DNA of 38,126 nt. Origin: a virus. Taxonomy: Duplodnaviria; Caudoviricetes. Below, piece after piece: positions 11,489 through 34,597 of this stretch; position 1 is the stretch's first letter; each line of letters starts with the position of its first letter. The DNA is taken from the IMG/VR virus record IMGVR_UViG_3300037420_001437, positions 1-38,126 of that record, one strand, 5' to 3'. Position numbers and translations under genes: made by a program. Under the pieces are notes generated by a model. It was not told where the DNA came from. It made no database searches and saw nothing but the letters and a program-made list of their open reading frames with translations.

Positions 11489-11532
11489 CAGCTTTTGTAC
11501 TACTATTGAGCGTCTGTTGTGTCACTCACTTG
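11489..11532 (-). repeat. Dispersed 45-bp site, copy 1 (spacer CAGACGCT)
   Basis: - strand CAAGTGAGTGACACAA-CAGACGCT-CAATAG-TAGTACAAAAGCTG; 31 bp identical (inverted) to copy 4. Confidence 0.9.
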
Positions 11533-11546
11533 GGGGGTTCGGGGTT

Positions 11547-11846
11547 CTAATCATCAATCCATGTAAAGGAGGGCATCTTTATAGCGTCCTGTGGTTTCAT
11601 TTCAAGTTCAACTCCCTCCTTTTTGACCTTTTCTTTGGCGATGAGATAGGTTAACTCCCGTAGGTGAACGGATGCCGCCATTGCGGTTTTAAAGTCTTTG
11701 AAAAAGCGGTTCATATTTTCAGGTGTGAGGGCATTGAAAATATCTTCAATGGTTTTAAACTCATACTGCGGGTAGTCGGTTTCTCCCTTCTTTAGTTTTC
11801 TTTTTTTGATCTTATCTAAATGAAGGCCGTAATCATTTTTACTCAT
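11547..11846 (-). CDS. Hypothetical protein
   Basis: 99-aa ORF with AT-rich leader. Confidence 0.7.
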   Translation of the reverse strand: MSKNDYGLHLDKIKKRKLKKGETDYPQYEFKTIEDIFNALTPENMNRFFKDFKTAMAASVHLRELTYLIAKEKVKKEGVELEMKPQDAIKMPSFTWIDD

Positions 11847-11880
11847 ACTTACTTGTTTTAGTTTAAGAGGTTTTATAATT

Positions 11881-12210
11881 CTACTCAGCTACGTTTTCCG
11901 AGCTCCTACCGGCAAGAAGGGTTAGTATAAATAGGATTAAGAAGATGAAGAACAGCACTTTAGAAATACCTTCTAAGTGGGGGGCAATACCGCCAAACCC
12001 AAAGATGGCCGTGATAATAGACAACACTAAAAAGATAACGGCCCATCTTAATCCATCTTCCCCCGCATCACTCACATCTATACCCTCATAAAAGTCTTTT
12101 GCAGATTGGTTGTGCTTTAAGTTGAAATGCCATAGAAGAATAAAAAATTGGCAAAGCGCCCAAAGGAATAGGGTGAACAGTTTTCCAATTCCGATAAATA
12201 GATACTTCAT
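11881..12210 (-). CDS. Membrane protein with C-terminal DUF1328 (YtjA/UPF0391) domain
   Basis: 'LRWAVIFLVLSIITAIFGFGGIA...ISKVLFFIFLILFILTLL'. Confidence 0.8.
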   Translation of the reverse strand: MKYLFIGIGKLFTLFLWALCQFFILLWHFNLKHNQSAKDFYEGIDVSDAGEDGLRWAVIFLVLSIITAIFGFGGIAPHLEGISKVLFFIFLILFILTLLAGRSSENVAE

Positions 12211-12282
12211 AATTTCTTGTCTTTTAAGTTAAAAAGGGTTTTTGGTTCAGGGCTTTTTCTTTGGGTTCCATTAGTTTATTGA

Positions 12283-12690
12283 TTAGATTTCAACACACTT
12301 TTTACTGACAACCTCCCGAATCTTCTCTACCACCTCAGAGACATACGCGTTCATAGCTTCGTGACTGCGCTTAGAGGCAGGGTGGGCCACTTTTAAAATT
12401 TTAGGCCATACCAAAGGATGTACTGAATTTTTAAAACCCTTTTGAACTTCAGCACCTAACATGACAATTACATCAGCCTCATTAGGCTTGAGCCTGACCC
12501 ACCATTGCCAAGCGTGCCAGTCGGCTTCCTCATTTTTGGGCAAGTATTCGGTAGGGTATAAATTGGTTTTCTGCCAGCTTTTGAAGCCGCCTTCTTCAAT
12601 AATTCGATCAATCAACTTTCCTGTTTTTGTAGAAGAACATAGCGCCTCTTTGCCGGGCTTATGATGTAGGCCAACGAAGATTATTTTCAT
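12283..12690 (-). CDS. Minimal uracil-DNA glycosylase superfamily-like protein
   Basis: 'KIIFVG', 'TGKLI', 'TNL', 'VIVMLG', 'VAHPAS' in UDG-fold order; likely start MKIIFVG. Confidence 0.65.
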   Translation of the reverse strand: MKIIFVGLHHKPGKEALCSSTKTGKLIDRIIEEGGFKSWQKTNLYPTEYLPKNEEADWHAWQWWVRLKPNEADVIVMLGAEVQKGFKNSVHPLVWPKILKVAHPASKRSHEAMNAYVSEVVEKIREVVSKKCVEI

Positions 12691-12758
12691 ATAAAATCGT
12701 TTTTTGAATTTTATTTTATTGTGGTTGATTAGGATTGCCCACTGGTACGCTTTGATCG

Positions 12759-13031
12759 TTATTGAGCTTTTCTTGCAGGAGTTTCTATTTGTTCCATTGC
12801 ACATACGGCCATGCTAGCTACCTTACGCATTATACGCATAGCTTTAGGGTAAGCCGTTTGGACGTTCTGTCTGGATAAAATATGCTTTGCCTCGTTTATG
12901 TAATCTTCGATATACATAAACCACTCTTCGGGGGAATGAATACCTTTTGATGCAGTGGTATTCTCATTCCAACGACTATCCTGATAATCTCTTTCGCCGT
13001 TAATCAAATCGAAAACTTCTTGTCTTGTCAT
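12759..13031 (-). CDS. MazG-like all-alpha NTP pyrophosphohydrolase
   Basis: 'INGERDYQDSRW...EEWFMYIEDYINEA...RKVASMAVCAMEQ'. Confidence 0.55.
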   Translation of the reverse strand: MTRQEVFDLINGERDYQDSRWNENTTASKGIHSPEEWFMYIEDYINEAKHILSRQNVQTAYPKAMRIMRKVASMAVCAMEQIETPARKAQ

Positions 13032-13044
13032 AAACTGTTTTATT

Positions 13045-13986
13045 TTATTGATTAGAATTGTTGTAGCTGGTAATATTCCCATGCTCATCTTCTTTAGTAT
13101 CAATAGGAGTGCTAACAAATGGTTGGTGGGCGGCTTCACAGGGTAAAGTGCCCAAACCTACCAACCGTTTAAGTATCATTACTACATCCTTTGTCCACAT
13201 CTTAGGAAGGTTTTCGCCTTCTGCTTCCAAACCAGTTATGAACTGATTGATTTTAGAAAGAACAAGAGCCCCCTCTTGCTTTAATACATTTCTTTCTGCA
13301 TTAGCTATATCAAACTGTTCTTTCCAGAAAGCAGCGGTATCTGCTGCTATCAAGAGCTCTTGATAATGCTGGTACATTTCTATCCACTTTTCAGGAGGTG
13401 CTATTTTAGCTAACACACTCCAATCAGCCAGCGGGGTCGGAGATGGCGCTTCTTCTAACCATTCGATTGACCATAAATCCTTTTGGGGAATTATAAAGGA
13501 AGGATACATTTCAGTTCCGCAAATGGAAAGTTTAATCTCTCCATCTTCTTTAAAGAAGTTGCCAAGTCTTTTACAGCCAACATTATCCCGGATATGAAGA
13601 AACTTTTCAAGCGGCAGTCTGTCCAGAGATTCAGCAGCATTGACCCATTTTAGCTGAGAGGCCGGGGCTTCCTCTAACCATTCCTCCGGCAGTTGAAAAT
13701 ATTCCTGAATGGCTTGTTTTATTTTTTCTGCGCTTCCCAAATGAAATAAGCGGCCATAGTGCCATGCAAAATCATAGATGTATTCAATTAACCCGTCTTT
13801 TAGAACAAGACCCTTATCAGAGGCTCCTGCCTCAAACATCTCTATCATAGCGGAAATTAGAATATCGCTTAAAAGCATCCCTCCGTCCCTTCTTTGTTGG
13901 GTATTTCGGAAACCTATAAAATGGTCCTCTCCTAAATGTTTTTTCAGGATTTCTTCGGCTAACTGTTGGATTATTTTATTGTCCAT
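13045..13986 (-). CDS. Hypothetical mosaic protein
   Basis: 313 aa; 'EWLEEAP' occurs twice. Confidence 0.75.
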   Translation of the reverse strand: MDNKIIQQLAEEILKKHLGEDHFIGFRNTQQRRDGGMLLSDILISAMIEMFEAGASDKGLVLKDGLIEYIYDFAWHYGRLFHLGSAEKIKQAIQEYFQLPEEWLEEAPASQLKWVNAAESLDRLPLEKFLHIRDNVGCKRLGNFFKEDGEIKLSICGTEMYPSFIIPQKDLWSIEWLEEAPSPTPLADWSVLAKIAPPEKWIEMYQHYQELLIAADTAAFWKEQFDIANAERNVLKQEGALVLSKINQFITGLEAEGENLPKMWTKDVVMILKRLVGLGTLPCEAAHQPFVSTPIDTKEDEHGNITSYNNSNQ

Positions 13987-13988
13987 AA

Positions 13989-14183
13989 TTATTGATTTTT
14001 ATGCTCTGTGTTTTTTTCTGGATTAGTAGTATACTGGTGTCGTTCATCGGCCTTAGAAGACTTTGGTGATGGCGGTACCTCGCCAGCCATATTATTAAAC
14101 CTTTCTTCAGCCTGTCTCAGCCACCGATCTAATTGAGCGTTCCATTCTCTTTGTTGTGGGGATAAATGATTGTTATTGTCCAT
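13989..14183 (-). CDS. Hypothetical protein
   Basis: Likely start MDNNNH, coupled to the upstream ORF. Confidence 0.55.
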   Translation of the reverse strand: MDNNNHLSPQQREWNAQLDRWLRQAEERFNNMAGEVPPSPKSSKADERHQYTTNPEKNTEHKNQ

Positions 14184-14334
14184 TGTTTTTGGTTTGTTGA
14201 TATTTTGATTTGTTAAGATGAATAGGCTCATACCCTGTTATCTGCCCTTCTTTAAGGCACCTTTCTGCATCATCAGTATAATGCTTACACAGAATAGATT
14301 CCGCTAAGGCTCTTATTTGTTCTACTGTATTCAT
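14173..14334 (-). CDS. Hypothetical protein
   Basis: MNTVEQIRALAESILCKH; N-terminus resembles that of 13045..13986. Confidence 0.5.
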   Translation of the reverse strand: MNTVEQIRALAESILCKHYTDDAERCLKEGQITGYEPIHLNKSKYQQTKNNGQ

Positions 14335-14347
14335 TGTTATTGATGTT

Positions 14348-14518
14348 TTATCTATTATCAAACATTTCATAAAGACCTTCAATAATTTCATCTTCAGCAT
14401 CTATTGTGTAGCCCATTTGTTCAATGAACTCAAAAAACTTTTCTTCCTCTTCTATATCCAAACCCAAATGGTTTATAATAGCATCTTTTCTGTTTTCACC
14501 CTGGAATTGTGGTATCAT
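14348..14518 (-). CDS. Acidic hypothetical protein (56 aa)
   Basis: Manual translation MIPQFQGENRKDAIINHLGLDIEEEEKFFEFIEQ... Confidence 0.55.
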   Translation of the reverse strand: MIPQFQGENRKDAIINHLGLDIEEEEKFFEFIEQMGYTIDAEDEIIEGLYEMFDNR

Positions 14519-14572
14519 TGTAATTGATATTTTGATTTGTCAAGATGAGGTTAACGTGTAGGGGAAGCATAT

Positions 14573-14923
14573 TTATCGTACATTTTTCTCATTATTATTG
14601 TTTTGAGTTTGTTGGTTAAACCATTTAATATTTTCTACCAATACTGTCCACAAGGGTTCGATTTCATAAAGGGAAGCCACCCGGTCTAACTCATCACACC
14701 TTTGCTCGTATTCTGGATTGCCTAAAAGTTCATTTAGATTATCCCATTTATAGCAGACGGGCATCAGCCAATCCCAGCTTACATGATAATAAAGGCTTTC
14801 TGGGAAGAGTAAATCTTCATCCGAACGCATAAATTCGCTTTTATCATCCGTCCATTTCTTCCCGTCAAAGTCGGCTATTAGTTTATTTCCTTCTTGTATC
14901 TGTTGGGTTGTTTTCTTATCCAT
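14573..14923 (-). CDS. Hypothetical protein (paralog of 15317..15655)
   Basis: 'IQEGNKL', 'SWDWLMPV', 'IKWFNQ'. Confidence 0.75.
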   Translation of the reverse strand: MDKKTTQQIQEGNKLIADFDGKKWTDDKSEFMRSDEDLLFPESLYYHVSWDWLMPVCYKWDNLNELLGNPEYEQRCDELDRVASLYEIEPLWTVLVENIKWFNQQTQNNNNEKNVR

Positions 14924-15320
14924 TGTTTAAGTTTTGCTGGTTAAGAAATTCGGCTTCTGTGGCAGGGAGTAATTGCCTTGATGGTAGATGGTCTCTGCTG
15001 TTTCTCTCGTTTATTTTAATAAACCCGTAACCCATCCGGCTTTGATGTGTCTTAAATACCTGACCCGTCTGTATATGTTTTACATACGGGGGCCTTTCTT
15101 CCTCTGTGCGTTCTTCCCACCATTCAAGTTTTCGGAAAATATGCGGGTACTTATCAACTTCATGCCCACCTCCATCACAGTAAACTTTGAGCGGGGCGGA
15201 ACTGCCAAACTCAATGATTGTTCCTACCGCATTCCAGTTGCCGGGAAAGTCAGCTATGACTTTATAGCGGGGAAGTAAAAGCTCTTGGACTTGTTGCTGT
15301 TCTACTACTTCTTTATTCAT
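14916..15320 (-). CDS. Hypothetical protein
   Basis: 134 aa, overlapping both neighbours; 'PRYKVIADFP...YPHIFRKLEWWE'. Confidence 0.75.
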   Translation of the reverse strand: MNKEVVEQQQVQELLLPRYKVIADFPGNWNAVGTIIEFGSSAPLKVYCDGGGHEVDKYPHIFRKLEWWEERTEEERPPYVKHIQTGQVFKTHQSRMGYGFIKINERNSRDHLPSRQLLPATEAEFLNQQNLNNG

Positions 15321-15655
15321 TTGTTTTGAGTTTGGTTATCCCATTTAATGAAGTCAACGACGGCCAGCCACGCCGCCTCAATCAGAGGCCCGTTAATTAT
15401 ATTCCAGTATGGCTTAACAGCGTTCTTCGTGGTGAAGATTCGACATTGTTTGGAAGTAGTTATTTCAACAATGCAGTTCATCGTGCCTATCTTTTCTGCT
15501 ACTGGCATAACATCATTCCATGTCACCCATCCCGATAAATAGCCATCAGCATAGCCCATGAAAGCCTCAACCAATTGCCGGTGTTCTTTTGATACCTTCA
15601 GTTTATTCCCTTCTTGTATGGTGGGTATTAATGGTTGTATTTTCTTTTGTGCCAT
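15317..15655 (-). CDS. Hypothetical protein (paralog of 14573..14923)
   Basis: 'IQEGNKL', 'TWNDVMPV', 'FIKWDNQ'. Confidence 0.75.
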   Translation of the reverse strand: MAQKKIQPLIPTIQEGNKLKVSKEHRQLVEAFMGYADGYLSGWVTWNDVMPVAEKIGTMNCIVEITTSKQCRIFTTKNAVKPYWNIINGPLIEAAWLAVVDFIKWDNQTQNK

Positions 15656-16032
15656 AACGTAGTTTGTTTTAGAGAGGTAGCATCAAGGGCAAGGCCAGCG
15701 TCAATCAAGCCGAAAACGTCAAAGTGCTTTGATAGAAGGAATAAGGTTGCTTCGGCTTCCATTATGGCTGTTTTATATTTATCGGCGTTCGGATAGCTTA
15801 ACCCGATTAATTCCCAATCCATTCTCTCATCGTCTGTTATGGAACTTAATGGGCGCAGGATGAGCTTTATCCATTCTATAGGGTATTTAACCCTTTCGGC
15901 TATAGCTTGTTCTAAATTCCAATCGTAGCCTTCTAAATAATGCCCAACGGGTTCAATGCCTGGTTCACAAATAGCAATAGGCACTTTGGGATACAGGTGT
16001 ATATAATTTTTTATGTTCTTTTCCTGTGTCAT
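15628..16032 (-). CDS. Hypothetical phage protein
   Basis: 'IKLILRPLSSIT...LLSKHFDVFGLIDAGLA' pattern, familiar from Bacteroidota phage proteins. Confidence 0.75.
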   Translation of the reverse strand: MTQEKNIKNYIHLYPKVPIAICEPGIEPVGHYLEGYDWNLEQAIAERVKYPIEWIKLILRPLSSITDDERMDWELIGLSYPNADKYKTAIMEAEATLFLLSKHFDVFGLIDAGLALDATSLKQTTLWHKRKYNH

Positions 16033-16082
16033 AACTAACTTGTTTTTACATCGTTGTTTGCTCTTATAAGGTAACAAGGCTA

Positions 16083-16517
16083 TTAGGCGTCTTCAAACAG
16101 CTTTTCGTTCAACGTTTCAATTAGTTCCCGGTATTCCGCTTCGGTATATTCGCTTTCTTCTTCATTGAAATAGGCCACGCCCCGGTAATCACTGCGTAGT
16201 TGCTGCGCAATCAAAATGACCGTTTGCAGTAATTCCTTAACTGTACCCACCCCACCATAACTTACACCGTGGCAACCCTCGCCAAAGTCTATATACTCAT
16301 TGGACAAGGACAAGCACCGGCTATCATCCACCTGCGCCTTTACCAGATACGTTCTTCGATAATGCACTTCGTAAGATTGGGAAGCACTTAAAGCCGCTTT
16401 GTAGTATTCTTTTAACTTAAAGCCAAGCAGGGCGAATACTTCTTTGATTTCCATTTCATTGGCTAAGACTGGCTTTTGTTCCAGTATACCGATTAATTGA
16501 GTAGTTGTTAGTTTCAT
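16083..16517 (-). CDS. Hypothetical protein
   Basis: Likely start MKLTTT after an AT-rich leader. Confidence 0.7.
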   Translation of the reverse strand: MKLTTTQLIGILEQKPVLANEMEIKEVFALLGFKLKEYYKAALSASQSYEVHYRRTYLVKAQVDDSRCLSLSNEYIDFGEGCHGVSYGGVGTVKELLQTVILIAQQLRSDYRGVAYFNEEESEYTEAEYRELIETLNEKLFEDA

Positions 16518-16631
16518 ATATTTTTCGTTTTTAAGCGTTTTTAAATCTAATGTGTGGTCTAACCCTATTTTTGGGTTTGAGGCGAAATTTGCCGCCACGT
16601 ATTAGCGAATTCGGGCACTCCTGCCATAATC

Positions 16632-16976
16632 CTACACCGGACGTATCTCAAACTCAATACGTGGTTCATCCCGGCTCACAAACTTTTGCGCTACGATTTT
16701 TATGCAGTTCCGATCGTTTTTGATCGCCCCTACGTGCTGCAAACAATCCAGGGTCACTTTGAGTGAATTATCCAAATCGGCCCTATTTGCCGGGTAGTAC
16801 ACATCCAGATACAGTTCAAACAAGCCCGTTATATTCAGATTCCGGTAGTGGTTGCACTGTAGGTAAAAGGCTTTTTCATAGTCGGTTAAGGCTTTAGTTT
16901 TATACATCGAACCGTTAGGACTGAACCGGTACATATTGCTTTTGGAAGGACATACCCCCTGAATTATTTGTTTCAT
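16632..16976 (-). CDS. rusA: RusA-family Holliday junction resolvase
   Basis: 'PSKSN', 'RADLDNSLKVTLDCL..GAIKND', 'PRIEFEI'. Confidence 0.9.
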   Translation of the reverse strand: MKQIIQGVCPSKSNMYRFSPNGSMYKTKALTDYEKAFYLQCNHYRNLNITGLFELYLDVYYPANRADLDNSLKVTLDCLQHVGAIKNDRNCIKIVAQKFVSRDEPRIEFEIRPV

Positions 16977-16978
16977 TT

Positions 16979-17257
16979 TTAGCTGGCTTTTAAAAGGTTT
17001 TCCTTTGCTACAAATCCCGTTTTATTCATCTTCGATTCAAAACAAAGAGCAAACGTTAGTTGCACCGATTCTTTGAACAGGTAGCTTTTAAGTAAGGGCC
17101 TTAGTTCTTCTTTGATTGATTCGAGTTCCTTTTGAATGATCCGCTCCCGGCGCTCACAGTTCTGCTGCCAGGTGTCCTCTTTCCAGTTGGGAAGATTGTA
17201 GGCAGGTACCTGGCGCTCCCCGATTAGTTTCCCGTTTAAATAGATTTCGATGGTCAT
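16979..17257 (-). CDS. Hypothetical protein
   Basis: 92 aa, ATGA-coupled. Confidence 0.7.
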   Translation of the reverse strand: MTIEIYLNGKLIGERQVPAYNLPNWKEDTWQQNCERRERIIQKELESIKEELRPLLKSYLFKESVQLTFALCFESKMNKTGFVAKENLLKAS

Positions 17258-17989: not shown

Positions 17990-18002
17990 CTTTCCTTTGG
18001 GC

Positions 18003-20879: not shown

Positions 20880-21947
20880 TTATTTTTCACTCAGTAAGTA
20901 ATTGTTGTTGATCACTTTAAAACTCAGGTTGTCTTCCACGCACCGCCACACTAATCCTTCGGCATGGGCGTTAGGGTTCAGTAAATCCTTTATTTCAGCC
21001 TCTTTTAAGATTTCTTCCAACGTTGAAGGCAAGAGAAGCACATCATATTTAGGGCAATGGGGAATGTTCATTTTAAGGCACACTTCCAAAAAGTCTTTTT
21101 GGTTCAGGCGCTTTCCATTGACGTAGATGTTAAACAACCTTATTTGCTCCCTTTCTAAGTTGTGGTGGTTGCCGTTAAACTTGCCAATAGCTTCCCCCTG
21201 AACGATTATATCATTGGTTTGAAAGTGCCGAACAAGTTTTAAGATTTCATACTTAAAGTCCGTGTCCCGAAAAACCCTATACCAATCGTTCTTTTTGTCG
21301 TGCAGTTCAAAGCGGCGGCTGCATATCCTGAATTTGGATTTCCCTAATACCTTACTGTGAATAATGGTGATACTGGAACCGTCTAACTTATAGCTTACTA
21401 CAAATTCCTTCCCTGCGTGTGTTCTTAATACGTGTGGTATATTCTGTATCCTTTCTTCATCGGTAATGCTCACCAAATGCGTAGGAAAGGGGCTGCGAGA
21501 CTTCCTTTTTAAGCCAGGAAATAGCTTATAGAGGAAATTGTATTTAAAAATGTAGAACCATTTTTTATACCACACCTTCGGCATCCGGGGCTTTTCAAAT
21601 CGTTCGGGGTTATTATCCGGCTTTTCGTATTTCTTTACACCTATAACCTCCGTGACATCGTCGCCTTCCTTCCACTCTCCTTTAGGCAGGGGTACAATCA
21701 AACCTTGCGAGATTTGCTTACGTAGTTTAATGGTTCTAACCCGGTACTTGCGTTCCCTTAGAAAATCGAACTGTTCTGTTTCAGGAACAACCGTGTCAAT
21801 CTGGATATAGCACACTATATCACCAACGGCATATTCATTTTTCTTTATCACTATTTCCCATCCTAAAACGCCACATACCTGTATATTATCAGCATTGGGA
21901 ATGTCTCTAATCCATAGAATTTTTTCGGCAGTGGCCAACTTACTCAT
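20880..21947 (-). CDS. RNA ligase, DRB0094/Rnl5-like
   Basis: N-terminal 'IPNADNI..GW.IVIKK..Y.VGD'; ligase motifs 'KLDGSS', 'QGEAIG', 'LFNI', 'EGLV', 'SFKVINNNYLL'. Confidence 0.9.
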   Translation of the reverse strand: MSKLATAEKILWIRDIPNADNIQVCGVLGWEIVIKKNEYAVGDIVCYIQIDTVVPETEQFDFLRERKYRVRTIKLRKQISQGLIVPLPKGEWKEGDDVTEVIGVKKYEKPDNNPERFEKPRMPKVWYKKWFYIFKYNFLYKLFPGLKRKSRSPFPTHLVSITDEERIQNIPHVLRTHAGKEFVVSYKLDGSSITIIHSKVLGKSKFRICSRRFELHDKKNDWYRVFRDTDFKYEILKLVRHFQTNDIIVQGEAIGKFNGNHHNLEREQIRLFNIYVNGKRLNQKDFLEVCLKMNIPHCPKYDVLLLPSTLEEILKEAEIKDLLNPNAHAEGLVWRCVEDNLSFKVINNNYLLSEK

Positions 21948-22425
21948 TGTGTAAATAATTTATACAGTTTTTAAAAAGTTGAATATTATCTTCAAACAAA
22001 CCCAAACCAGTATTACATCTTCTACAAAGCAAGTGTCTTATTTCCCCGGTCTTATGGCAGTGATCAACATAAAGCCTGTTCTCTTTATCATCTTCTACAT
22101 GAGGCTTGCCGCATATTTTACATTTGTAGTTCTGCTTTTGAAGCATTAGGTCAAAATCTTCTAAGGAGATACCGTATTTATATTTAAAAAAGTACCCTCT
22201 TTGTGTCCTCTTATCAATTTTAGGCTTATGCTTTCTTCTCTCAAGAATTGCATCTTTATTCTTTTGAAAGTATTCGGCTTTATATTTCCTTCTCTTTTCA
22301 TGTTGTTCTTCTAATGGAACTCTTATTTTCCCGAACCGTTTTATGGAGTAACAGTCCCTGCATAACTCTGCATCATTTCTTGATGTTTCTTTCAGGCAAT
22401 TACTGCAAATACCTTTAGTTGGCAT
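21940..22425 (-). CDS. Endonuclease VII-family (His-Me) homing endonuclease
   Basis: 'YGISLEDF..ML.KQ..KCKIC', 'LYVDHCHKTGEIRHLLCRRCNTGLGLF.DN'; N-terminal CxxC pairs. Confidence 0.9.
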   Translation of the reverse strand: MPTKGICSNCLKETSRNDAELCRDCYSIKRFGKIRVPLEEQHEKRRKYKAEYFQKNKDAILERRKHKPKIDKRTQRGYFFKYKYGISLEDFDLMLQKQNYKCKICGKPHVEDDKENRLYVDHCHKTGEIRHLLCRRCNTGLGLFEDNIQLFKNCINYLHNE

Positions 22426-22430
22426 ATTTG

Positions 22431-22592
22431 TTATTTTGGGTTGTTTTTTATTTCGATGGTACACAGGTCGCCAATCCTATATTCTCCTTTTTTGATAACA
22501 ACCTGCCATCCTAAAACATGGGCTGTTTCGATGGCATCCGCCCCTTCGATGGGAGTAATGTCCAGTATTTTTTGTACGCTTGCTAAATTCAT
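22431..22592 (-). pseudogene. Truncated N-terminal copy of the RNA ligase (53 aa)
   Basis: MNLASVQKILDITPIEGADAIETAHVLGWQVVIKKGEYRIGDLC aligns with residues 1-46 of 20880..21947. Confidence 0.85.
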
Positions 22593-22602: not shown

Positions 22603-22899
22603 TTATTTGTCGAGTAGACTTGTTTCAGCCAACGAGTGCGACGCAACAGGTTCTGAACAGAGTTCCTTAGCTGGGTTCATAATCCTATCGACTAATTTTT
22701 GTTTCACCTCCTCCCCCAAAGAATAATTAATAGGCTGTAAAGACGCTAACCATACCCTTCTTCTTTCATTCTCCTTTACAGTTTCAGGAATCACTAAACA
22801 GTAGCTTTCATTAAACTCTATGAGTTCATCGGGCGTTACCCTGTAGTAATACCCAAAGGCGTAGTAGTATTTTACCGGCTCTGTCAGATTGAGGGTCAT
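22603..22899 (-). CDS. Hypothetical protein (C-terminus reads through dispersed site 2)
   Basis: 98-aa ORF. Confidence 0.65.
   Translation of the reverse strand: MTLNLTEPVKYYYAFGYYYRVTPDELIEFNESYCLVIPETVKENERRRVWLASLQPINYSLGEEVKQKLVDRIMNPAKELCSEPVASHSLAETSLLDK
22630..22673 (+). repeat. Dispersed 45-bp site, copy 2 (spacer CAGGTTCT)
   Basis: AACGAGTGCGACGCAA-CAGGTTCT-GAACAG-AGTTCCTTAGCTG. Confidence 0.85.
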
Positions 22900-24762: not shown

Positions 24763-24797
24763 AAGATTTTATTTTTTGGTTTAGTTTTTTGGGTACT

Positions 24798-24844
24798 GAG
24801 CTTTGGAATATCTATTGGGCTTTACTTGCGTCGCACACTTGTAC
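24798..24844 (-). repeat. Dispersed 45-bp site, copy 3 (spacer GTAAAGCC)
   Basis: - strand GTACAAGTGTGCGACGCAA-GTAAAGCC-CAATAG-ATATTCCAAAGCTC. Confidence 0.9.
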
Positions 24845-24854
24845 GTCCTGATCG

Positions 24855-25049
24855 CTATTCAACAATTGACCAATCTTCTTCCCAAAACTTATCCTGTCTG
24901 TAGCTCCAGAATTGATTAGCCGATACACAATACCCTTCCTCTGTAACTATTTTTCCTGCCAGCATAGTAATCCACTCGTAAGGCTCAAAGAATCTATGGG
25001 CTACCTTTTTGCCCTGTTCCATTACTTTTATAGCTTCTTGCTTTGTCAT
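24855..25049 (-). CDS. Hypothetical phage protein (DUF2829-like pattern)
   Basis: 'EAIKVMEQGKKVAHR...EEDWSIVE'. Confidence 0.7.
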   Translation of the reverse strand: MTKQEAIKVMEQGKKVAHRFFEPYEWITMLAGKIVTEEGYCVSANQFWSYRQDKFWEEDWSIVE

Positions 25050-25953: not shown

Positions 25954-26847
25954 TTAATTGTTTACAGGTTGGTTTAATTTGTTGTAGACCTCCATTGCAG
26001 CGGCCTTAAACTCAGGGTGAACGATGACCTCTTTGGGTTGGTAGGCTTTTATTTCACTTAGATTTTCAACCGTTTTGGCCTTTTTAATTTGTTTAATGCT
26101 GCTCTCCAAGACCTCCCTAAAGGCCTTTTCTTTAGCCTCCTTAAAGGCTTTTTGGGCCGCTTCGCCGTATATGCCTAATTCACACCACTGTTTAATTTGT
26201 CTGCCGGTTTCCTGGTCTGGAACAAACTCCGGCTTACCATCAAAAAGCCGGGTTCTATCTTTGGACGTTTTAGCCAAATGCGTATCGGTAATGATTTCAA
26301 AGGCGACGGTCATTTCGTAATCGTAGCCATCCCTGATTTCATCTTCTAGCCCCTTTTTTTCTACTTTGGTTTTGCCGCCTTCCTGTACCACGGCATAGGC
26401 CTGTTTTTTCCGCATGGTGGTAATGACATGGCAGGAAGAATGCAGGATCTTGTTAAGCCATTTTTGATAAAGAGGCGTGGTTTTGGCCCAATCCTGGTAT
26501 TTACCGCCCAGGGAATTTTGATATTCCAAAAGCCCCCCCTGTCCCTTCCAAACGTGGGTAACGGAATCAATAATGATCACCTCAATTCCGGACTTTTCAC
26601 ACAGTTCAATCGCCTGGATATATTTTTCAGTCGTAAAAGGCGGTTCAATGGGAATGGTGTAATAGGTTCCTAAATGGGCATATAAAGAAGCCGACCTGTT
26701 TTCCGTATCAATGACCGCTATCTTAGACCAATCATCTGTCATGCCGTGGGCAATGAGCAGGGCACTGAATGTTTTGCCAAATCCCGTAGGGGCAGATATG
26801 CTCATTCTTATTTTTACTTTTTCTCTCGATGCTATTTGTAGTTCCAT
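25954..26847 (-). CDS. AAA_24 / Sak4-like ATPase (recombination)
   Basis: 'APTGFGKT', 'AVIDTE', 'IIIDS.TH.W', 'HVITTMR'. Confidence 0.88.
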   Translation of the reverse strand: MELQIASREKVKIRMSISAPTGFGKTFSALLIAHGMTDDWSKIAVIDTENRSASLYAHLGTYYTIPIEPPFTTEKYIQAIELCEKSGIEVIIIDSVTHVWKGQGGLLEYQNSLGGKYQDWAKTTPLYQKWLNKILHSSCHVITTMRKKQAYAVVQEGGKTKVEKKGLEDEIRDGYDYEMTVAFEIITDTHLAKTSKDRTRLFDGKPEFVPDQETGRQIKQWCELGIYGEAAQKAFKEAKEKAFREVLESSIKQIKKAKTVENLSEIKAYQPKEVIVHPEFKAAAMEVYNKLNQPVNN

Positions 26848-26851
26848 ATAC

Positions 26852-27162: not shown

Positions 27163-27516
27163 CTATTGAGCATTTTTGCTTGTGAGCTTCACTAATTCAA
27201 TTTTCCTTTCTATAGAAGTATTCGGGTCGTTGGCTTCTTCGTATAAAAATTTATGCGCCTTAGCCCTCGCTTCTTTTACTTTTTTCATTCCAGAAGGACT
27301 TAGGCCAACACTGTATCCAGACCTGATTTCTTTACAAAGGCCATAGATATATGCTGCGTTATCCTGCGTAACAATAATTTCCATTGTTTCAGGCTTGTCG
27401 TAATCCCACTTAGAGCCGCATAGGACTGAAATCCTATGCAAATCCCATAGGTAGTACCCGCTTATAAGGCCAAATGCCTCTTCAAACATTCGGCTATTCT
27501 CATCTAAATCTTTCAT
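27163..27516 (-). CDS. Hypothetical protein
   Basis: 117-aa ORF starting ~40 bp from site 4. Confidence 0.7.
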   Translation of the reverse strand: MKDLDENSRMFEEAFGLISGYYLWDLHRISVLCGSKWDYDKPETMEIIVTQDNAAYIYGLCKEIRSGYSVGLSPSGMKKVKEARAKAHKFLYEEANDPNTSIERKIELVKLTSKNAQ

Positions 27517-27557
27517 AAAGACTGTTTTTTGTTTTGCTCAATAAGGTTCTGAACCTT

Positions 27558-27602
27558 GAAGGGAGTGACACAACAGACGCTCAATAGTAGTACTACTGCT
27601 GG
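27558..27602 (+). repeat. Dispersed 45-bp site, copy 4 (spacer CAGACGCT)
   Basis: GAAGGGAGTGACACAA-CAGACGCT-CAATAG-TAGTACTACTGCTGG. Confidence 0.9.
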
Positions 27603-27607
27603 CTTCC

Positions 27608-28305: not shown

Positions 28306-28306
28306 A

Positions 28307-28723: not shown

Positions 28724-28954
28724 TTATTTACTTTTAGGTTTTAAAAGGGCTTTAAATCTTCGATGGATATATGCACCCACCAGCACCGGGCCTACCACTT
28801 TTACGGTTTCTTCGGGTTGGGTTAGGATTTGCTTTAATACCCAGAACATACAAAAGCCGTAGAGTAAAAGCATGACCACGAAATAGGCTGCGGTCACAAC
28901 CATCAGTTGGCGGGGGCTTAATTCGAAGTGCAAAAAGCGGTTGAGGGTTTTCAT
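28724..28954 (-). CDS. Small membrane protein
   Basis: Two hydrophobic segments; ATGA-coupled. Confidence 0.65.
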   Translation of the reverse strand: MKTLNRFLHFELSPRQLMVVTAAYFVVMLLLYGFCMFWVLKQILTQPEETVKVVGPVLVGAYIHRRFKALLKPKSK

Positions 28955-29346
28955 GACAAGCCCTCCTCTCTTTCGTACAGTTCGTTAGCAAATGGTTCAT
29001 CAAACAGACGCTCTTCGGTTATAGTCTCATGGTAGATGTTGGGGTCTTCTTCCCTATCTACTACAGGGTTTTCGGCTTGTTCAGGAAACAAGATGGCTAA
29101 GGCCTTTTGTTTAGCCGCCTCAAATTCTCCCCTTGTAATGGCAGTGGCCTTAGTGATCTCTTCTTTGGTTCTTTCTACCAAAGAACACTTGGAAATACGG
29201 GTATAACCGTGGGTAGTCAAGCATACATCAGTAACTTCTTCTTCTGATTCAACACAAAAGAAACTATCATCATTTTGGCAGTAGTAAGGAAGCTGAATAT
29301 CCAGTTCTACCACATCATATACTTTTACGGTTGTTTGAATTTTCAT
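28951..29346 (-). CDS. Hypothetical protein
   Basis: 131-aa acidic ORF. Confidence 0.7.
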   Translation of the reverse strand: MKIQTTVKVYDVVELDIQLPYYCQNDDSFFCVESEEEVTDVCLTTHGYTRISKCSLVERTKEEITKATAITRGEFEAAKQKALAILFPEQAENPVVDREEDPNIYHETITEERLFDEPFANELYEREEGLS

Positions 29347-29364
29347 ACCTATGGTTTTGGGGGG

Positions 29365-29607
29365 TTAAGCGGTTTGATTTTTACGTTCGCGTTGGCGGGC
29401 ACACCAGACCCTGTAGTTAATGGAGGCTACCCTAAGTTGGGAGCGGTCCAGGCGTCGAACCATATCTTCCCAGAGCTTGCGAAGCTGTTCTTCTTCATCT
29501 ATGAGGGGGGCAGGCTCAGCGTAGGCCTGTTGAGCCATTTTAGTGAGTAGGTCCATGTTCGGTGGAGGTTTGGTGGTGTCAGTTTTGTGGTTTAATTTTG
29601 GTGCCAT
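29365..29607 (-). CDS. Hypothetical protein
   Basis: Likely start MAPKLNHK. Confidence 0.6.
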   Translation of the reverse strand: MAPKLNHKTDTTKPPPNMDLLTKMAQQAYAEPAPLIDEEEQLRKLWEDMVRRLDRSQLRVASINYRVWCARQRERKNQTA

Positions 29608-29698
29608 CTTATTGTATTTAAGATTTTTTTGAGGCCGTTGGGAAAGTTTACGAGGCAGACCCAACGGCCTTATTTATGTTGTTAGGCGCTTATTAGGT

Positions 29699-29944
29699 TC
29701 AATGCTTGATAAATTTTTCGTGAATGGAATTCAGATCGTAAAACCATTCGTACGCCCCCTCGCCCTTCTCTCTTTTTTCAAAGCGGATGTAACCGTTCTC
29801 CCTGGCTTGGTACATCTTGGTTTTATCCCACCCGGTCAGGGAGGTGATAACGGAAGCCTTCACCCAAAAAGGCTTTTTGTTCTGCTCCAACTGCTTAGCC
29901 AGTCGGTCAATCTTTCTCTCTAGTCTTTGGATGTCTGCGTCCAC
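29699..29944 (-). CDS. Excisionase-like winged HTH protein
   Basis: 'WVKASVITSLTGW..TKMYQARENGYI.F...WFYDLNSI' resembles the HTH_17/Xis pattern; directly after the Cro-like gene. Confidence 0.65.
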   Translation of the reverse strand: MDADIQRLERKIDRLAKQLEQNKKPFWVKASVITSLTGWDKTKMYQARENGYIRFEKREKGEGAYEWFYDLNSIHEKFIKH

Positions 29945-30002
29945 GGTTTAACGTTTTATTGCTGAGTTGTTTATAAAATTTTAAGCAATGAGGGTATTAC
30001 CT

Positions 30003-30239
30003 TTATGCTGCGGCCGCCTCGGCTACCAATATCTCTGAGTCGCTTAGATCTGTATCTTGACGGATTACTTCAATAGCCGCCATTTTAGTAAGCGGTCCAT
30101 TATCCTTATTCTCTTGAATACATTTTAAAACCCAACGTTCTGTGCAGTTGAGCGCCAGAGCAATTTTTGTCCTGATGGCTTTAGCCTCCCTGGTTTCTGT
30201 ATCGCCTATTCGAGCTATTGCGGTTGTAGATAGTTTCAT
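30003..30239 (-). CDS. Cro-like early regulator
   Basis: 'KIALALNCTERWVLKCI' HTH; divergent from the repressor. Confidence 0.65.
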   Translation of the reverse strand: MKLSTTAIARIGDTETREAKAIRTKIALALNCTERWVLKCIQENKDNGPLTKMAAIEVIRQDTDLSDSEILVAEAAAA

Positions 30240-30358
30240 GTTTAACTATATTCGTGTGTACGATTGTGAGAACTAAGATACGAAGGATTCGCGAAGTTTT
30301 CCAAATATTTCGCGAAGTATTTTTTAGGTATTTCTAAAATCGAGTATTTCTACGCGAA
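30240..30358. promoter_or_regulatory. Lysis/lysogeny switch with TWCGCGAA operator-like repeats
   Basis: TTCGCGAA at 30288 and 30309, TACGCGAA at 30351; TATCTTAG promoter-like box on the - strand near 30273-30280. Confidence 0.65.
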
Positions 30359-30838
30359 ATGACACAACCAACAGCATACAAAGAGCAATTAAAAGAGCTT
30401 TACCAAACCTATACGGGTAAAGAGTTAGAGCAGGCTATCGGAGTTTCCACCCGTTCTATCCAAAACTATTTAAAGGAGGAAAAGCCCAGCCTTCCAGGTC
30501 CCGAAGTGGTGCGTAAAATACGCGAAGCCTACGCGAAACATCAAAAAGAAGGGGTGATACTTAATAAAGAATCCACCCCCGAAGGAGTGGATTTAAAGGA
30601 TAAGTACATTACACTACTTGAAGCAACCGTCAGGGAAAAATCGGAGCTGATCCATAAGGTAGAGACTAGTTTAGCCCTACTGCCTGAAAGTATGCAAATG
30701 TTGACGGATCTGATTCTACAAGGGCAGACGGCACTACTTCGAAGGATGGAAGAAAATTTTGAGGCATTGACCCGGAAACTTTCTGAATCTCCCGATACCG
30801 CTGGCAACAAAAAGCCTTCACGGATGGGAAAACATTAG
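30359..30838 (+). CDS. CI-like XRE-family repressor (no peptidase domain)
   Basis: 'GKELEQAIGVSTRSIQNYLKEE..P' HTH, C-terminal coiled coil. Confidence 0.75.
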   Translation: MTQPTAYKEQLKELYQTYTGKELEQAIGVSTRSIQNYLKEEKPSLPGPEVVRKIREAYAKHQKEGVILNKESTPEGVDLKDKYITLLEATVREKSELIHKVETSLALLPESMQMLTDLILQGQTALLRRMEENFEALTRKLSESPDTAGNKKPSRMGKH

Positions 30839-31091
30839 CGGAAGCATACTTGCAATCGGCTTTCAGAGGGCATAAAGAGCAAATTCTCATAGTTCTCGCA
30901 GTTTTAATCGTGCTTTAAAAAATTAATAATGGAGGGTAAACTTACTAAAGGATTTAGCAAAAAGGAAGCCTTTCGGAAAGAAAAGTTTTCAACATAGCAG
31001 GGCATGATCAGTTAGTTTAAAAGGTTGGGGAAAAAAGTTACGCAATGGTTAGGGGGAAGTAAAAAATATGGCGCAACTCAGAGCCTTTACC

Positions 31092-31199
31092 TCACACAGG
31101 CTCTTGGGAAGCCGCACAGAAGCAAAGGATGAGCGCGCCACTACGGGCCGCCACCCAATGCACTGCTTCTGTGCTACAAATTTCCCAAGATTTGTGTGA
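31092..31199. ncRNA. Candidate structured RNA (long interrupted hairpin)
   Basis: Nested helices TCACACA/TGTGTGA, TCTTGGGAA/TTCCCAAGA, GCACAGAAGCA/TGCTTCTGTGC. Confidence 0.5.
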
Positions 31200-31346
31200 A
31201 GCAATACGATTGGAGTACGAATATTTTACTTATCGCAATATATGCGAAATTTCCTTACAGTAAGTGGCCTTTTCCGAAATTTTACATTTATTACTAAGTA
31301 GTTGTACGTAAGCGAGAAAGGGAAATACCCCTGTCCCCTGGAAAAA

Positions 31347-32531
31347 TTATAAATCTTTCCAGGCGGCTGACGTTTCCGCTTTGATTTTTTGAGGGGTAAC
31401 TTTGGAATAACTCTTCACAAATACCGCAAGGGTAATGCCCATTAACTCCGCTGCCGTTTCCGAGCTGATGCCCCTTTCCAGGCAAATCGTTACGGCAAAT
31501 GATTTTCTTCCACAATGCGAGGACAGATATTTATCTATGCCGGCTTCCCTGGCTACTGTTTTAAAGGTCTTATTTAACGTTGGTTCCGGCTCTGTCAGCG
31601 GGGTTTGCTTCATTAGTTCTATGGTCCTAAGTAGCCTAGCATGGTGCGGCGTGGATACCCACTGGCCGTTTTTCTTGGCCCGGATATTAATATAGTCCTT
31701 ATGCACCCGTTTTTTTATATCGAAGCGATACCAGTCTGAAATCCTTAGCCCCGTATAGCAACCAAAAAGAAAATAAATGGCTGCCTGTTTTTTTAGGGGA
31801 TTTGTAACTGTCTTAGCGTACTGCTCCCATTTATCTAGCTCCGCAAGCGATAAATGATCCTTATTGCCGTGGGTTTGCTCCGGCATCTCATAATCTGAGA
31901 ACGGGTAAGGAATCGAAAGTTTCTTTTTATTTCTTGCGTAGTTAAACAATCCCCTGATGGTTTTCATGATGGCAAAGACATAGTTATTGGTGTCCTTCCC
32001 CTGTCTATGCTTCACTCCCTTATTTCTTAGGTAGTATTCAAAGTCGGTTAAAAAATCAGGCGTGATTTGTTCGAAGGAAAGCCTTACAACGTCCTCTTCC
32101 CCTGCATATGGATTGAGATAGAGCTTTAGCTTTTTTAAGTGCTTCCGCCAGTTTTTGAAAGTGCCTTCAGTGCGCTTGCCGGTGAGTTCCTTAATTACTT
32201 TTTCTGCAAACTCAAAAATGTCGTGTAGTTTCTCTAATGATTGCTCTTTAACCTCAATGGCTGAAATGGATCTCTTTTTCACCCCGGCATCAATGATGTT
32301 TTCCAGAGCTTGTTTTTTCAGGCCTGCAATATCCAGGTTGATTTGCTCATGCAGCCAGTGTGCCTCTCTTACCAATTGCGCTTTCGGGTCCCAATATTTG
32401 GGGTTGATGTAGTGGCCGGTCGAGGTAAACACACTTTGCCGGTCAATGGTGACCCGCAGGTAAATGGGCATCTCTCCTTTTTTGTTTTTCTTGTTTTTTT
32501 TGAGAAGTAAGGTGATGGTATTCTTTTGCAT
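31347..32531 (-). CDS. int: Tyrosine integrase (Arm-DNA-binding, SAM-like and catalytic domains)
   Basis: 'GEMPIYLRVTID...STG', 'FGCYTGLRISD', 'SHCGRKSFA', 'KSYSKV'. Confidence 0.95.
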   Translation of the reverse strand: MQKNTITLLLKKNKKNKKGEMPIYLRVTIDRQSVFTSTGHYINPKYWDPKAQLVREAHWLHEQINLDIAGLKKQALENIIDAGVKKRSISAIEVKEQSLEKLHDIFEFAEKVIKELTGKRTEGTFKNWRKHLKKLKLYLNPYAGEEDVVRLSFEQITPDFLTDFEYYLRNKGVKHRQGKDTNNYVFAIMKTIRGLFNYARNKKKLSIPYPFSDYEMPEQTHGNKDHLSLAELDKWEQYAKTVTNPLKKQAAIYFLFGCYTGLRISDWYRFDIKKRVHKDYINIRAKKNGQWVSTPHHARLLRTIELMKQTPLTEPEPTLNKTFKTVAREAGIDKYLSSHCGRKSFAVTICLERGISSETAAELMGITLAVFVKSYSKVTPQKIKAETSAAWKDL

Positions 32532-32634
32532 GGTACACGATTTGGTACAACAAATAAAAGGTATTTCTAACTTTCTCTGACTTTATTAAACTTTACCATT
32601 TCTGCGAAAACCTTTACCAGTCGTGGTTTTAAGC

Positions 32635-32661
32635 AAAAACCCCCGACAAGCGGAGGTTTTG
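32635..32661 (-). terminator. Intrinsic terminator downstream of the restored tRNA 3' end
   Basis: - strand AAAACCTCCG-CTTGT-CGGGGGTTTTT. Confidence 0.7.
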
Positions 32662-32673
32662 AAAAATGGTCTT

Positions 32674-32693
32674 TGAGGTACCGAGCAGATTTG
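32674..32693 (-). other. att core = tRNA 3' fragment (probably tRNA-Cys)
   Basis: - strand CAAAT-CTGCT-CGGTACC-T-CA: T-loop end, T-stem, acceptor strand, U73 discriminator. Confidence 0.7.
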
Positions 32694-32849
32694 TTTTTTC
32701 TCGACACTACCCCGTTTTAGCGTTTAAAATCAATTAGTTATACATTATTTATGAAAGTTGGTTCTGATTTGGTACAACAACTCTTCTGTACACATCGCTA
32801 AGATAAGGGTGAGATTTTGGTAAAATTAGTTAAAGTAAAAAATAGAGAG

Positions 32850-33480
32850 GACAACGGTTTATATCCCTGCACCAAAACAGGAGGTGACTGTATCTTCGTT
32901 AGCTTCCTATACAGACTATCCCATTATTTCATCCTCTATCCCAAAGGCCAGCAAGAAAAAAGTTTTGAAGGTGCAGGTCGTATGTTGTCACCGTTAAGAC
33001 ATTGCATACACTGGGTACTTGCTGTTTTTCATAGGACAAAGAAAGTCCGGTGAAGGCGAAAACTTGTGTCCTACTAAGAAATAATGAGCGAAAACTTTTA
33101 TTGACCGGCGTGGAAGTGGACGGCGTGGGTAAAATCGTTTAAAACCACAGACGAGGGATTGAGGGAGTTAATAGCTTAACACACAGGAAAAACAAGGGCG
33201 TACTACCAAGCAGGCTACCTCCAAGTATTTAAGGCGTAATTCACTCGCATTTATGTGCTAAAACGCTACTATCGCCGCACTGTGGTTTCTGCCCATGTTT
33301 ATTAAAGCCTTACCCTGGGGCGCTGTTCTTATGGATAGCGTGGTAAGTTCTGTTTCAAAGAAAAAGCCCAACTCACTGTAACGGGTCAATGAAATTGGGC
33401 TGGCTGTAATGCCTTCTTACGAAGATAAAACAATAGCCCGAATCTGTACCCGTTACTTTACAAAATCGGTTTATCGTCTG
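32850..33480 (-). ncRNA. Candidate structured non-coding RNA / leader region
   Basis: No credible ORF; several long-range helices; TTGACA...TAGTTTTA promoter-like element at 33515-33485. Confidence 0.4.
33361..33401 (-). terminator. Intrinsic terminator/attenuator
   Basis: - strand AGCCCAATTTCATTG-ACCCGTTA-CAGTGAGTTGGGCT-TTTT. Confidence 0.7.
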
Positions 33481-33650
33481 ATCGTAAAACTACGATTTGC
33501 TAAAGCCTTTGTCAAGTTTTTACTAATAAACTTATCAACGATCTTTTAGTACTTATCCACTAAAAAGCCTCGCTGCGTATAGATTTGGACCTCGAATGGA
33601 GTGACACTAAACCAAAGAGTATATAATAAACCAACCCTGTTTATTATCCA

Positions 33651-33683
33651 AAAAAAAAGCCCCACCTATAGACATAGGGAGGC
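33651..33683 (-). terminator. Intrinsic terminator ending the post-lysis operon
   Basis: - strand GCCTCCCTATGTCTATAGGTGGGGC followed by a T-run. Confidence 0.7.
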
Positions 33684-33711
33684 GTAACCAACTGCATGAG
33701 AAAAAGAGATT

Positions 33712-33990
33712 TTAAGTACTGCCATCCTGAAGCGGTTGGGATTCGTCATGGTCGCACCGCCTGTACCCATCCCCCCACAGGGTATTGGCCATCAGCACTG
33801 ATTTTCGAATGACCTGTTCTTCACTTAGTTCGGGGCAGACCACGTGCAGCAGTTCGTGTAGCATGATTTCCAGGTGCTTTTTACCCCTAAGCCGGGGGTC
33901 AATCTCGATATAGTCATCATAGGCGATGCCCCACGACTTTTCGCGCAATAGCTTTTTATACACCACTTTTATTTTGCGTAGTCTTGCCAT
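33712..33990 (-). CDS. Small HEXXH zinc-metallopeptidase-like protein
   Basis: 'WGIA...IEIDPRL...EIMLHELLH...SEEQV'. Confidence 0.75.
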   Translation of the reverse strand: MARLRKIKVVYKKLLREKSWGIAYDDYIEIDPRLRGKKHLEIMLHELLHVVCPELSEEQVIRKSVLMANTLWGDGYRRCDHDESQPLQDGST

Positions 33991-34172
33991 CCTTCAAAGG
34001 GGATTTGGTGTCCACAGGTGTTTTTCAGGGGGTGGTACGGTCCCCACGCCAGATGATTGGTTTTGGTTTTATCCAGCTCCCCCCGAAAGCGTTCACAGTA
34101 ATTGGTCAGGGGGCAGCGACTGCCGTCCTTTAACACACCATCACAGAGGTCATAGTTCTTTTTGGGCTTCAT
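33969..34172 (-). CDS. Small Cys-rich hypothetical protein
   Basis: 'LCDG...CPLTNYCERF...C'. Confidence 0.65.
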   Translation of the reverse strand: MKPKKNYDLCDGVLKDGSRCPLTNYCERFRGELDKTKTNHLAWGPYHPLKNTCGHQIPFEGWQDYAK

Positions 34173-34253
34173 AGGCCACGGTTTTTAAGGGGTACTGTGT
34201 CCATTCGCCTCTTTAGTCGAATCTTTAAAATATTCGCCTTTTTAGGAGGTACT

Positions 34254-34300
34254 GAGCTGTTGTACTACTATTCGGCTTTACTTGTGTCACTCCCTTGTAC
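34254..34300 (-). repeat. Dispersed 45-bp site, copy 5 (spacer GTAAAGCC)
   Basis: - strand GTACAAGGGAGTGACACAA-GTAAAGCC-GAATAG-TAGTACAACAGCTC. Confidence 0.9.
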
Positions 34301-34338
34301 GTCTTGTAATTCTACTCGGCATTTTGTATCTTCACTTT

Positions 34339-34530
34339 ATGGATAAACTAATTCTTTGTAAATACTTAGATGTTTATTTTTACGAAAACCATTTACCTGT
34401 CTATACAGCAGCAAAGGAAAACCCACTTTGCACCCAACGACTTTCTTATGAATTAGCTTCAAGCGTTGCCAACCCTCCTGAATTATATAGGAACAGAAAA
34501 ACAACCTGTATTTTAGTGTGGTTGAATTAG
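34339..34530 (+). CDS. Hypothetical 63-aa protein, cassette between sites 5 and 6
   Basis: MDKLILCKYLDVYFYENHLP...; AT-rich; TATCTTCA promoter-like box just upstream. Confidence 0.5.
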   Translation: MDKLILCKYLDVYFYENHLPVYTAAKENPLCTQRLSYELASSVANPPELYRNRKTTCILVWLN

Positions 34531-34550
34531 TGCCCCATAGCGTGACAGCC

Positions 34551-34597
34551 GTACACGAGTGCGACGCAAGTAAAGTCCAATAGATATTCTTAGCTGG
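34551..34597 (+). repeat. Dispersed 45-bp site, copy 6 (spacer GTAAAGTC)
   Basis: GTACACGAGTGCGACGCAA-GTAAAGTC-CAATAG-ATATTCTTAGCTGG. Confidence 0.9.

Follow-up and report, generated by a model that had tools for sequence, protein, structure and literature searches.

The virus record IMGVR_UViG_3300037420_001437, whose complete 38,126 bases we analysed (hereafter the window), carries six copies of a short motif between positions 11,489 and 34,597, and the question is what these sites do there. The first-pass annotation had described them as sites of about 45 bp in strict alternation, at which a recombinase swaps whole functional modules of 2–11 kb. We found that the sites themselves are real: a scan with CAAGNGWGYGACRCAA, allowing at most 2 mismatches, gave 6 matches in the window against a chance mean of 0.36, and 0 of 100 shuffles reached 6. 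They adjoin gene boundaries and come in two arm types, as had been reported. Their proposed role fared differently. The sites are likely a host repeat, similar to repetitive extragenic palindromic (REP) sequences and bacterial interspersed mosaic elements (BIMEs), that is used as cassette ends, rather than module-shuffling sites of a tyrosine recombinase.

The six cores lie at 11517–11532 (−), 22631–22646 (+), 24826–24841 (−), 27558–27573 (+), 34282–34297 (−) and 34554–34569 (+), and each site is part of a polar repeat of about 72 bp, the arm. The arm reads, in order, R1 (GYYSARTAG), 12–14 nt, a 16-nt core preceded by GTAC, 4–5 nt, R2 (like R1), 9–10 nt, R3 and an A-rich tract. The earlier 45-bp unit was too short, as R1 is a third repeat-like 9-mer lying 13–14 nt ahead of the core. 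The motif as first quoted holds for its spacers and its two arm types, but copy 2 has GAACAG instead of SAATAG and copy 4 has TGCT instead of AGCT. Type I cores end in ..GTGCGACGCAA and type II cores in ..GAGTGACACAA. The core is near-invariant, its neighbouring segments are variable and the G positions are phased. Across 315 copies, R1 and R2 are identical in 1, covariation is confined to the two core types, and no long-range covariation was found. That lack of covariation, together with Rfam (no match for the sites) and folding z-scores (below −2.5 in 2 of 15 copies, with no fold common to single arms), led us to reject a structured RNA or a hairpin at each site. Adenine mutagenesis of the diversity-generating retroelement type was likewise rejected, as on neither strand are the variable columns limited to A.

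The unit that this analysis newly defines is a small slot, in which a type I arm, one or two open reading frames (ORFs) and a type II arm follow one another with the arms head-to-head. Phage sequences contain 15 head-to-head pairs less than 1.5 kb apart, or 13 after removing two duplicates; 9 of the 13 combine type I with type II, 2 are I + I and 2 are II + II. One pair is empty (gap 30) and the other 12 hold one or two ORFs, and in 7 of 8 mixed, cargo-bearing slots the ORF is oriented from the type I arm towards the type II arm. The intact slot of the window, formed by the type II arm of site 5 (34248–34320, −) and the type I arm of site 6 (34532–34602, +), encloses 211 bp of cargo (34321–34531). 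Its 63-aa ORF (34339–34530, +) stops 1 nt before the R1 of site 6, is on record solely for this sequence with no homolog found, and makes this slot the exception to the type I to type II direction if the ORF is real; an alternative ORF of 88 aa occupies 34337–34603 on the − strand.

The cargo of this slot has been replaced between kept flanks. In a related locus (L056), flanks 88–90% like those of sites 6 and 5 enclose a different, 80-aa ORF that starts 1 nt after R1. Contigs from four soil or rhizosphere sequencing runs, aligned at 90% likeness so that other phages or hosts may contribute, contain joints 34296→34550 (run X1) and 34244→34597 (X2–X4) and loose ends at 34551 (X3 and X4). Elsewhere in the window, the type II arm of site 4 (27536–27607, +) pairs with a solo R1 at 27163–27171 around a single 117-aa cargo gene (27163–27516, −), whose stop this R1 supplies, and the relative G001 carries other cargo behind the arm orthologous to site 4. 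A variable slot at 20880–22464 (−), after site 2, holds genes for an endonuclease VII-like and an RNA-ligase-like protein (the latter at 20880–21947); G001 and the relative G002 have different cargo between the same flanks. The units are thus one or two genes rather than modules of 2–11 kb.

Genes end at R1 with a precision that differs between phages and hosts. Of the 38 phage genes whose end lies on the R1 side, 5 stop at most 3 nt from R1, 12 use the TAG of R1 as their stop codon and 14 read into the arm, giving 31 of 38 in phages versus 13 of 101 in hosts. In the window, R1 supplies the stop of gene 11547–11846 at site 1 (type II, 11483–11555, −), of gene 24855–25049 at site 3 (type I, 24792–24863, −) and of gene 10515–10991 at a seventh, degenerate arm (10451–10523, −), whose ortholog in a phage relative has a different upstream gene; site 2 (type I, 22609–22679, +) is read through on the − strand by gene 22603–22899. 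Remnants consisting of R1 without a core terminate four further window genes. Besides 27163–27171, they lie on the − strand at 11881–11889 (gene 11881–12210), 12759–12767 (gene 12759–13139, followed by a decayed core) and 16080–16088 (gene 16083–16598), and at two of them a relative’s full arm starts at the same G (11881–11889 in G002 and 16080–16088 in G001).

Read-through genes carry the mark of the arm in their proteins. For a methylase-like cargo, the one family for which homolog C-termini were compared, 57 of 120 homologs end at most 3 residues from a conserved motif, and the arm-coded tail starts after that motif; in one homolog the tail derives from a different arm variant. Unrelated phage proteins share the arm-coded C-terminal tail N/S-S-D/E-Q-N-x-x-x-S-D-T-T (L054:9442-10047, L007:18149-18718, L007:8337-8534 and four more; P0003), and the tail could possibly serve as a marker with which to find cassettes in protein databases.

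Related phages show which side of the arm is exchanged. Viral scans found related contigs with up to 12 arms each, and comparison of 61 distinct phage arms gave 17 pairs alike in the R3 flank only, none alike in the R1 flank only and 3 alike in both (about 10 loci), so that the R3 flank is common to 17 of 17 discordant pairs. When junctions between neighbouring genes were compared, arms in gene direction kept the downstream gene 13:2 and reversed arms kept the upstream gene 9:0, while plain junctions split 46:61 (P = 4 × 10−5); a stricter threshold gave 12:2 and 9:2. Overall, the R3 side was kept and the R1 side replaced at 22 of 24 junctions. Because both arm orientations keep the R3-side gene, the polarity of replacement follows the arm and not transcription. 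Between core and R3, R2 included, the sequence varies patchwise even where a rare core variant has remained at its locus, a pattern suggestive of conversion among copies.

The arm is a repeat of host chromosomes. A 19-letter core pattern matches an estimated 11,000 or so stretches in GTDB; among the 80 GTDB loci listed, 73 are titled Chitinophagales or genera of that order, and 7 are unclassified Bacteroidota. At least 6 exact cores occur in 12 of 401 Bacteroidota genomes, five genomes hold 27–504 exact cores each, and within Chitinophagaceae they are present in 69 of 121 genomes, ranging from 0 to 1,672 per genome (0–1 for a reversed-pattern control). Because the repeat belongs to the chromosomes of this family in the GTDB scan, we infer that the phage infects a member of Chitinophagaceae. 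Host copies adjoin housekeeping genes, with R3 near gene ends, and are found in both orientations relative to genes; in 200 kb of the genome with 1,672 copies (G295), the 60 copies are intergenic, flanked by ordinary genes, and occur on both strands, about one per 3 kb. The same genome has a 44-kb arm-free stretch (G295:C1:59.2-103.4 kb) with two large serine recombinase genes, and missing arms may flag recent islands. Isolated phages and plasmids gave no real match to the repeat. It was also not described in the literature searched, including two supplement files of PMC6006769, although subscription papers and other supplements could hold it. The first-pass annotation had allowed that the sites might be a known REP motif; they form a REP-like host repeat, but not one found in print.

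The state of the arm varies at one orthologous host locus. Of 18 relatives compared at the rpsD–rpoA spacer, 8 have an intact arm, 2 an interrupted one and 8 a decayed one or none; both core types occur at this one orthologous place, and 2 of the 8 intact arms have a second, head-to-head arm on the R1 side. A tree of the locus built from 16 of the 18 rows is poorly resolved (1 of 13 branches strong). Two of the spacers (L256 and L263) have a small hairpin of about 26 bp inserted at the same core position, one in a type I and one in a type II core, and in another (L254) the arm lacks exactly the part between R1 and R2, leaving one R plus R3. A further genome (G547) carries 243 arms that share one R1 and are nearly identical, linkers included; therefore, single arms amplify.

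Head-to-head pairs also occur in host chromosomes, where their geometry is fixed. Across 10 arm-rich genomes, three of which have none, we counted 77 head-to-head pairs with cores 20–50 nt apart. The gap is 30 nt in 21 pairs, 36 in 12, 37 in 26, 44–50 in 15 and another value in 3, so that 59 of 77 fall at 30 or 36/37, and 57 of 77 mix type I with type II (P = 3 × 10−5 against one half). The centre of gap-30 pairs is a conserved palindrome around TA, built by overlapping R1s (20 pairs), and that of gap-37 pairs is GCTSAGC (14 pairs); the 40 pairs fetched for the checks of centre, spacer and duplication were hand-picked and mostly mixed. The 10 close pairs that were folded form long mismatched stems, unlike single arms. 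Among the output listed for the 40 fetched pairs, we saw no position-fixed direct repeat that would mark a target-site duplication. The duplication around an inverted pair that is typical of the ends of miniature inverted-repeat transposable elements or of DDE-type insertion sequences (ISs) was thus not seen in these pairs; as to an autonomous partner with the same ends, the pairs inspected enclose ordinary genes.

We propose that the arm is a non-autonomous, REP/BIME-like repeat of two types, which an enzyme of the host copies in trans and also cuts and rejoins at R1, and that its inverted pairs in phages are the ends of single-gene cassettes; we give this explanation about an even chance of being right. 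In this view the phage acquired the sites from its hosts, as copies of a polar, mobile intergenic repeat that exists in two types in Chitinophagaceae chromosomes. Facing type I and type II arms would enclose one or two small genes, and the host enzyme would cut and rejoin the DNA at their inner, R1 ends, so that cargo is exchanged while the R3-side backbone stays. Homologous patch conversion among the many copies probably adds the mosaic look beside the core. The action at R1 is inferred from these patterns, and the kind of enzyme is a guess by analogy. Our best guess is an HUH, RAYT-like (REP-associated tyrosine transposase) single-strand nuclease working on folded strands, because the repeat behaves in a REP/BIME-like manner, with no target duplication and with mixed pairs that fold into a long mismatched stem. 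The next guess would be a site-specific recombinase that uses the R1 quasi-palindrome with its central TA. More speculatively, and less likely than not, the arms could belong to a new gene-capture system. It would combine a polar site of two ends, with type I ahead of the gene’s start and type II at its stop, and a host enzyme dedicated to trimming genes down to the reading frame; cassettes would be exchanged between phages and the chromosomes of Chitinophagaceae, whose thousand copies would act as the reservoir of ends.

Several results weigh against the proposed mechanism. No enzyme was linked to the arm in any family examined, and the co-occurring recombinase that the first-pass annotation had suggested looking for did not appear. 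A search limited to PF01797 gave 36 Y1_Tnp loci in 10 genomes, all of them lacking an array of the arm; the RAYT-like genes inspected carry other hairpin REPs, and the genome with 1,672 copies has one Y1_Tnp match. An IS91 transposase scores above the cut-off in 1 of 5 genomes and a resolvase domain in 3 of 5, while an IntI-like recombinase is present in 25 of 50 arm-rich versus 25 of 71 other genomes (P = 0.13). Few host arms form close pairs: the 10 genomes have about 9,000 copies and 77 such pairs. In phages, breaks fall at 36 of 48 arm junction comparisons versus 242 of 299 other junctions (P = 0.33), and switch points do not mark one bond but are scattered along a stretch of about 22 nt between R1 and the beginning of the core. 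Junction counts are not independent, as orthologous slots recur and most of the phage relatives form one close group, and in compact phage genomes any insert abuts genes.

The candidate enzymes were set aside family by family: RAYT/IS200 proteins, whose flanking repeats are other hairpin REPs with no array of the arm; tyrosine recombinases; the IntI-like family and serine recombinases, which do not track the arm; and IS91, which does not track it either and whose ends, where seen, do not resemble it, although R1-N13-CAAG has a likeness to the IS91 ori end. An exact core lies near the IntI-like gene in 3 of 30 loci. The gene product, a tyrosine recombinase of about 380–400 aa that has additional sequence at its N terminus, is encoded in 50 of 121 genomes of the family, unlinked to the arm (L309, L310, L336–L365). 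Among 391 proteins adjacent to arms, no neighbour family recurs; the neighbours are ordinary genes. Beside a RAYT-like gene, one classical hairpin REP (L210:478-600) starts with the same 7–11 letters as some arm cores, a weak hint of a shared origin.

The main rival holds that arms are passive anchors, inserted singly by gene ends, and that cargo is swapped between cores by short-homology recombination, through RecA or a Sak4-like protein, with no dedicated enzyme. It would draw on the window’s own gene for an AAA_24, Sak4-like annealing protein (25954–26847, −), a candidate driver of homology-based swaps, and it accounts for the scattered switch points, the patchwise exchange of the R2 segment at a locus that retains a rare core variant, both core types at one orthologous host locus, and breaks that are not in excess at arms. 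The repeats of T4-like phages for which such swapping is proposed (PMC2839356) offer a precedent. Yet crossovers between equal repeats should keep either flank equally, whereas R3 is kept in 22 of 24 cases, and the fixed gaps, the mixed-type pairing and the precision of ORF ends are unpredicted; we regard this rival as a real but rather doubtful contender. It is improbable that the arm chiefly serves to bind a host protein of the nucleoid, of transcription or of mRNA processing. Selection would then act on a 20-bp core, phage copies would mimic host DNA or tune expression, and variability would be a by-product. The near-invariant core with variable neighbours and phased G positions, the copies beside housekeeping genes with R3 near gene ends and the 44-kb stretch of G295 without copies all agree with this. 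Against it stand copy numbers from 0 to 1,672 inside one family, a single orthologous site at which 8 of 18 relatives have a decayed or missing arm, the use of either orientation with respect to genes, and the lack of any promoter or terminator match on arms in a sigma-70 scan, which is not suited to Bacteroidota.

The original proposal, in which a tyrosine recombinase with matched 8-bp spacers exchanges whole modules between strictly alternating sites, is largely refuted, and we consider it very unlikely. The six strong sites do alternate (P = 0.03 by chance), two spacer pairs match in the window, and the sites stand at mosaic boundaries. Nevertheless, alternation is not strict, because two extra copies that the list of six had missed lie in the window: the degenerate seventh arm and a decayed eighth copy at 33572–33609 (+), whose core has 2 mismatches and which has no R2 or R3 (contigs of runs X1–X3 have a full arm there). 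The strand order becomes − − + − + + − +. Neighbouring arms alternate in 7 of 11 cases in G001 and 5 of 6 in G002, and another relative (L042) has five same-strand copies consecutively. In the 200 kb of G295, alternation holds for 29 of 50 neighbours separated by more than 400 bp, and of 9 close pairs 8 stand head-to-head with R1 inward. None of the 13 phage pairs and none of the 40 host pairs has identical spacers. The spacer has no dyad around it and differs between orthologous copies with nearly identical outer flanks. Changes fall on the other side of the core from it, between R1 and the core start. The sites do mark differences among related phages, in that one slot was replaced between kept flanks; the swapping of whole functional modules does not follow, given that arm breaks are no commoner than others. 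Mosaicism extends over nearly the whole of these phage genomes and does not require arms.

The rest of the window is that of a temperate tailed phage with nearly all genes on the − strand. It encodes head genes, DnaB, RusA, the Sak4-like protein, a repressor, an Arm-DNA-bind_5 integrase and an endolysin, with an M50 peptidase gene among the head genes (4788–5576). The tyrosine integrase (Arm-DNA-bind_5, SAM_5; 31347–32531, −) showed no evidence of a link to action on arms. Beside it, contigs of the four runs depart from the phage sequence at 32655 and 32691 (region 32655–32800), and the attachment site likely lies near these positions.

How small genes are cut exactly at start and stop is an open question for integron cassettes and phage morons alike. 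A 72-bp site whose ends are of two types, whose pairs have fixed geometries and whose alleles have been swapped in nature offers a direct assay for exact gene excision. An unexplained, abundant repeat of a common soil and freshwater family becomes a candidate recombination site, through which a host repeat shapes phage mosaicism.

Four known systems resemble the arm in part. Integron cassettes each carry an attC site that forms a single-strand hairpin, are moved by the IntI integrase and hold cargo trimmed to the ORF. Arm slots share the close trimming, with a stop codon often overlapping the site, but have no attC-like hairpin per site, no adjacent integrase, and two inverted ends rather than one site per cassette. 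In pdif modules, 11-6-11 sites with a XerD arm alternate strictly and are served in trans by the host’s XerC/D. Small modules between inverted sites, with an enzyme from the host in trans, are the common ground; by column frequencies the arm has neither the 11-6-11 dif anatomy nor a XerD arm, it shows no strict alternation and no compatible spacers, and it has hundreds of chromosomal copies.

The closest likeness is to REP, BIME and REPIN (REP doublets forming hairpins) elements as described in PMC6006769, PMC3116915 and PMC3733652: short intergenic repeats with hundreds to thousands of copies and a patchy distribution, and inverted pairs with preferred spacings, pairs of two types and no target duplication seen. 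Mixed-type dimers with conserved spacers are reported for REP repeats (PMC3733652). The arm differs in having GTAC and a stem of at most 3 bp instead of a GT(A/G)G foot with a stem-loop, in the dominance and amplification of singles (243 near-identical singles in G547 with no close pair), in the lack of a REPtron (a RAYT gene flanked by its cognate repeat) found for it, and in pairs that hold protein-coding cargo in phages. It is also longer, with a three-repeat anatomy. The promoter-early stem-loop (PeSL) cassettes of T4-like phages, according to PMC2839356 and PMC4122927, have repeats of about 70–100 bp at gene boundaries, flanking single ORFans that differ between close relatives, and the arms likewise sit at phage gene boundaries around small genes that vary among relatives. 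PeSLs are phage promoter–terminator units whose recombination leaves one chimeric copy; arms are polar host repeats in both orientations and in head-to-head pairs. If the swaps prove to be plain homologous recombination, the arm would be a host-derived counterpart of PeSL shuffling. The arm works like REP/BIME repeats and like PeSL shuffling, yet it departs from each of these, and from pdif modules and integrons, in the very features that define them.

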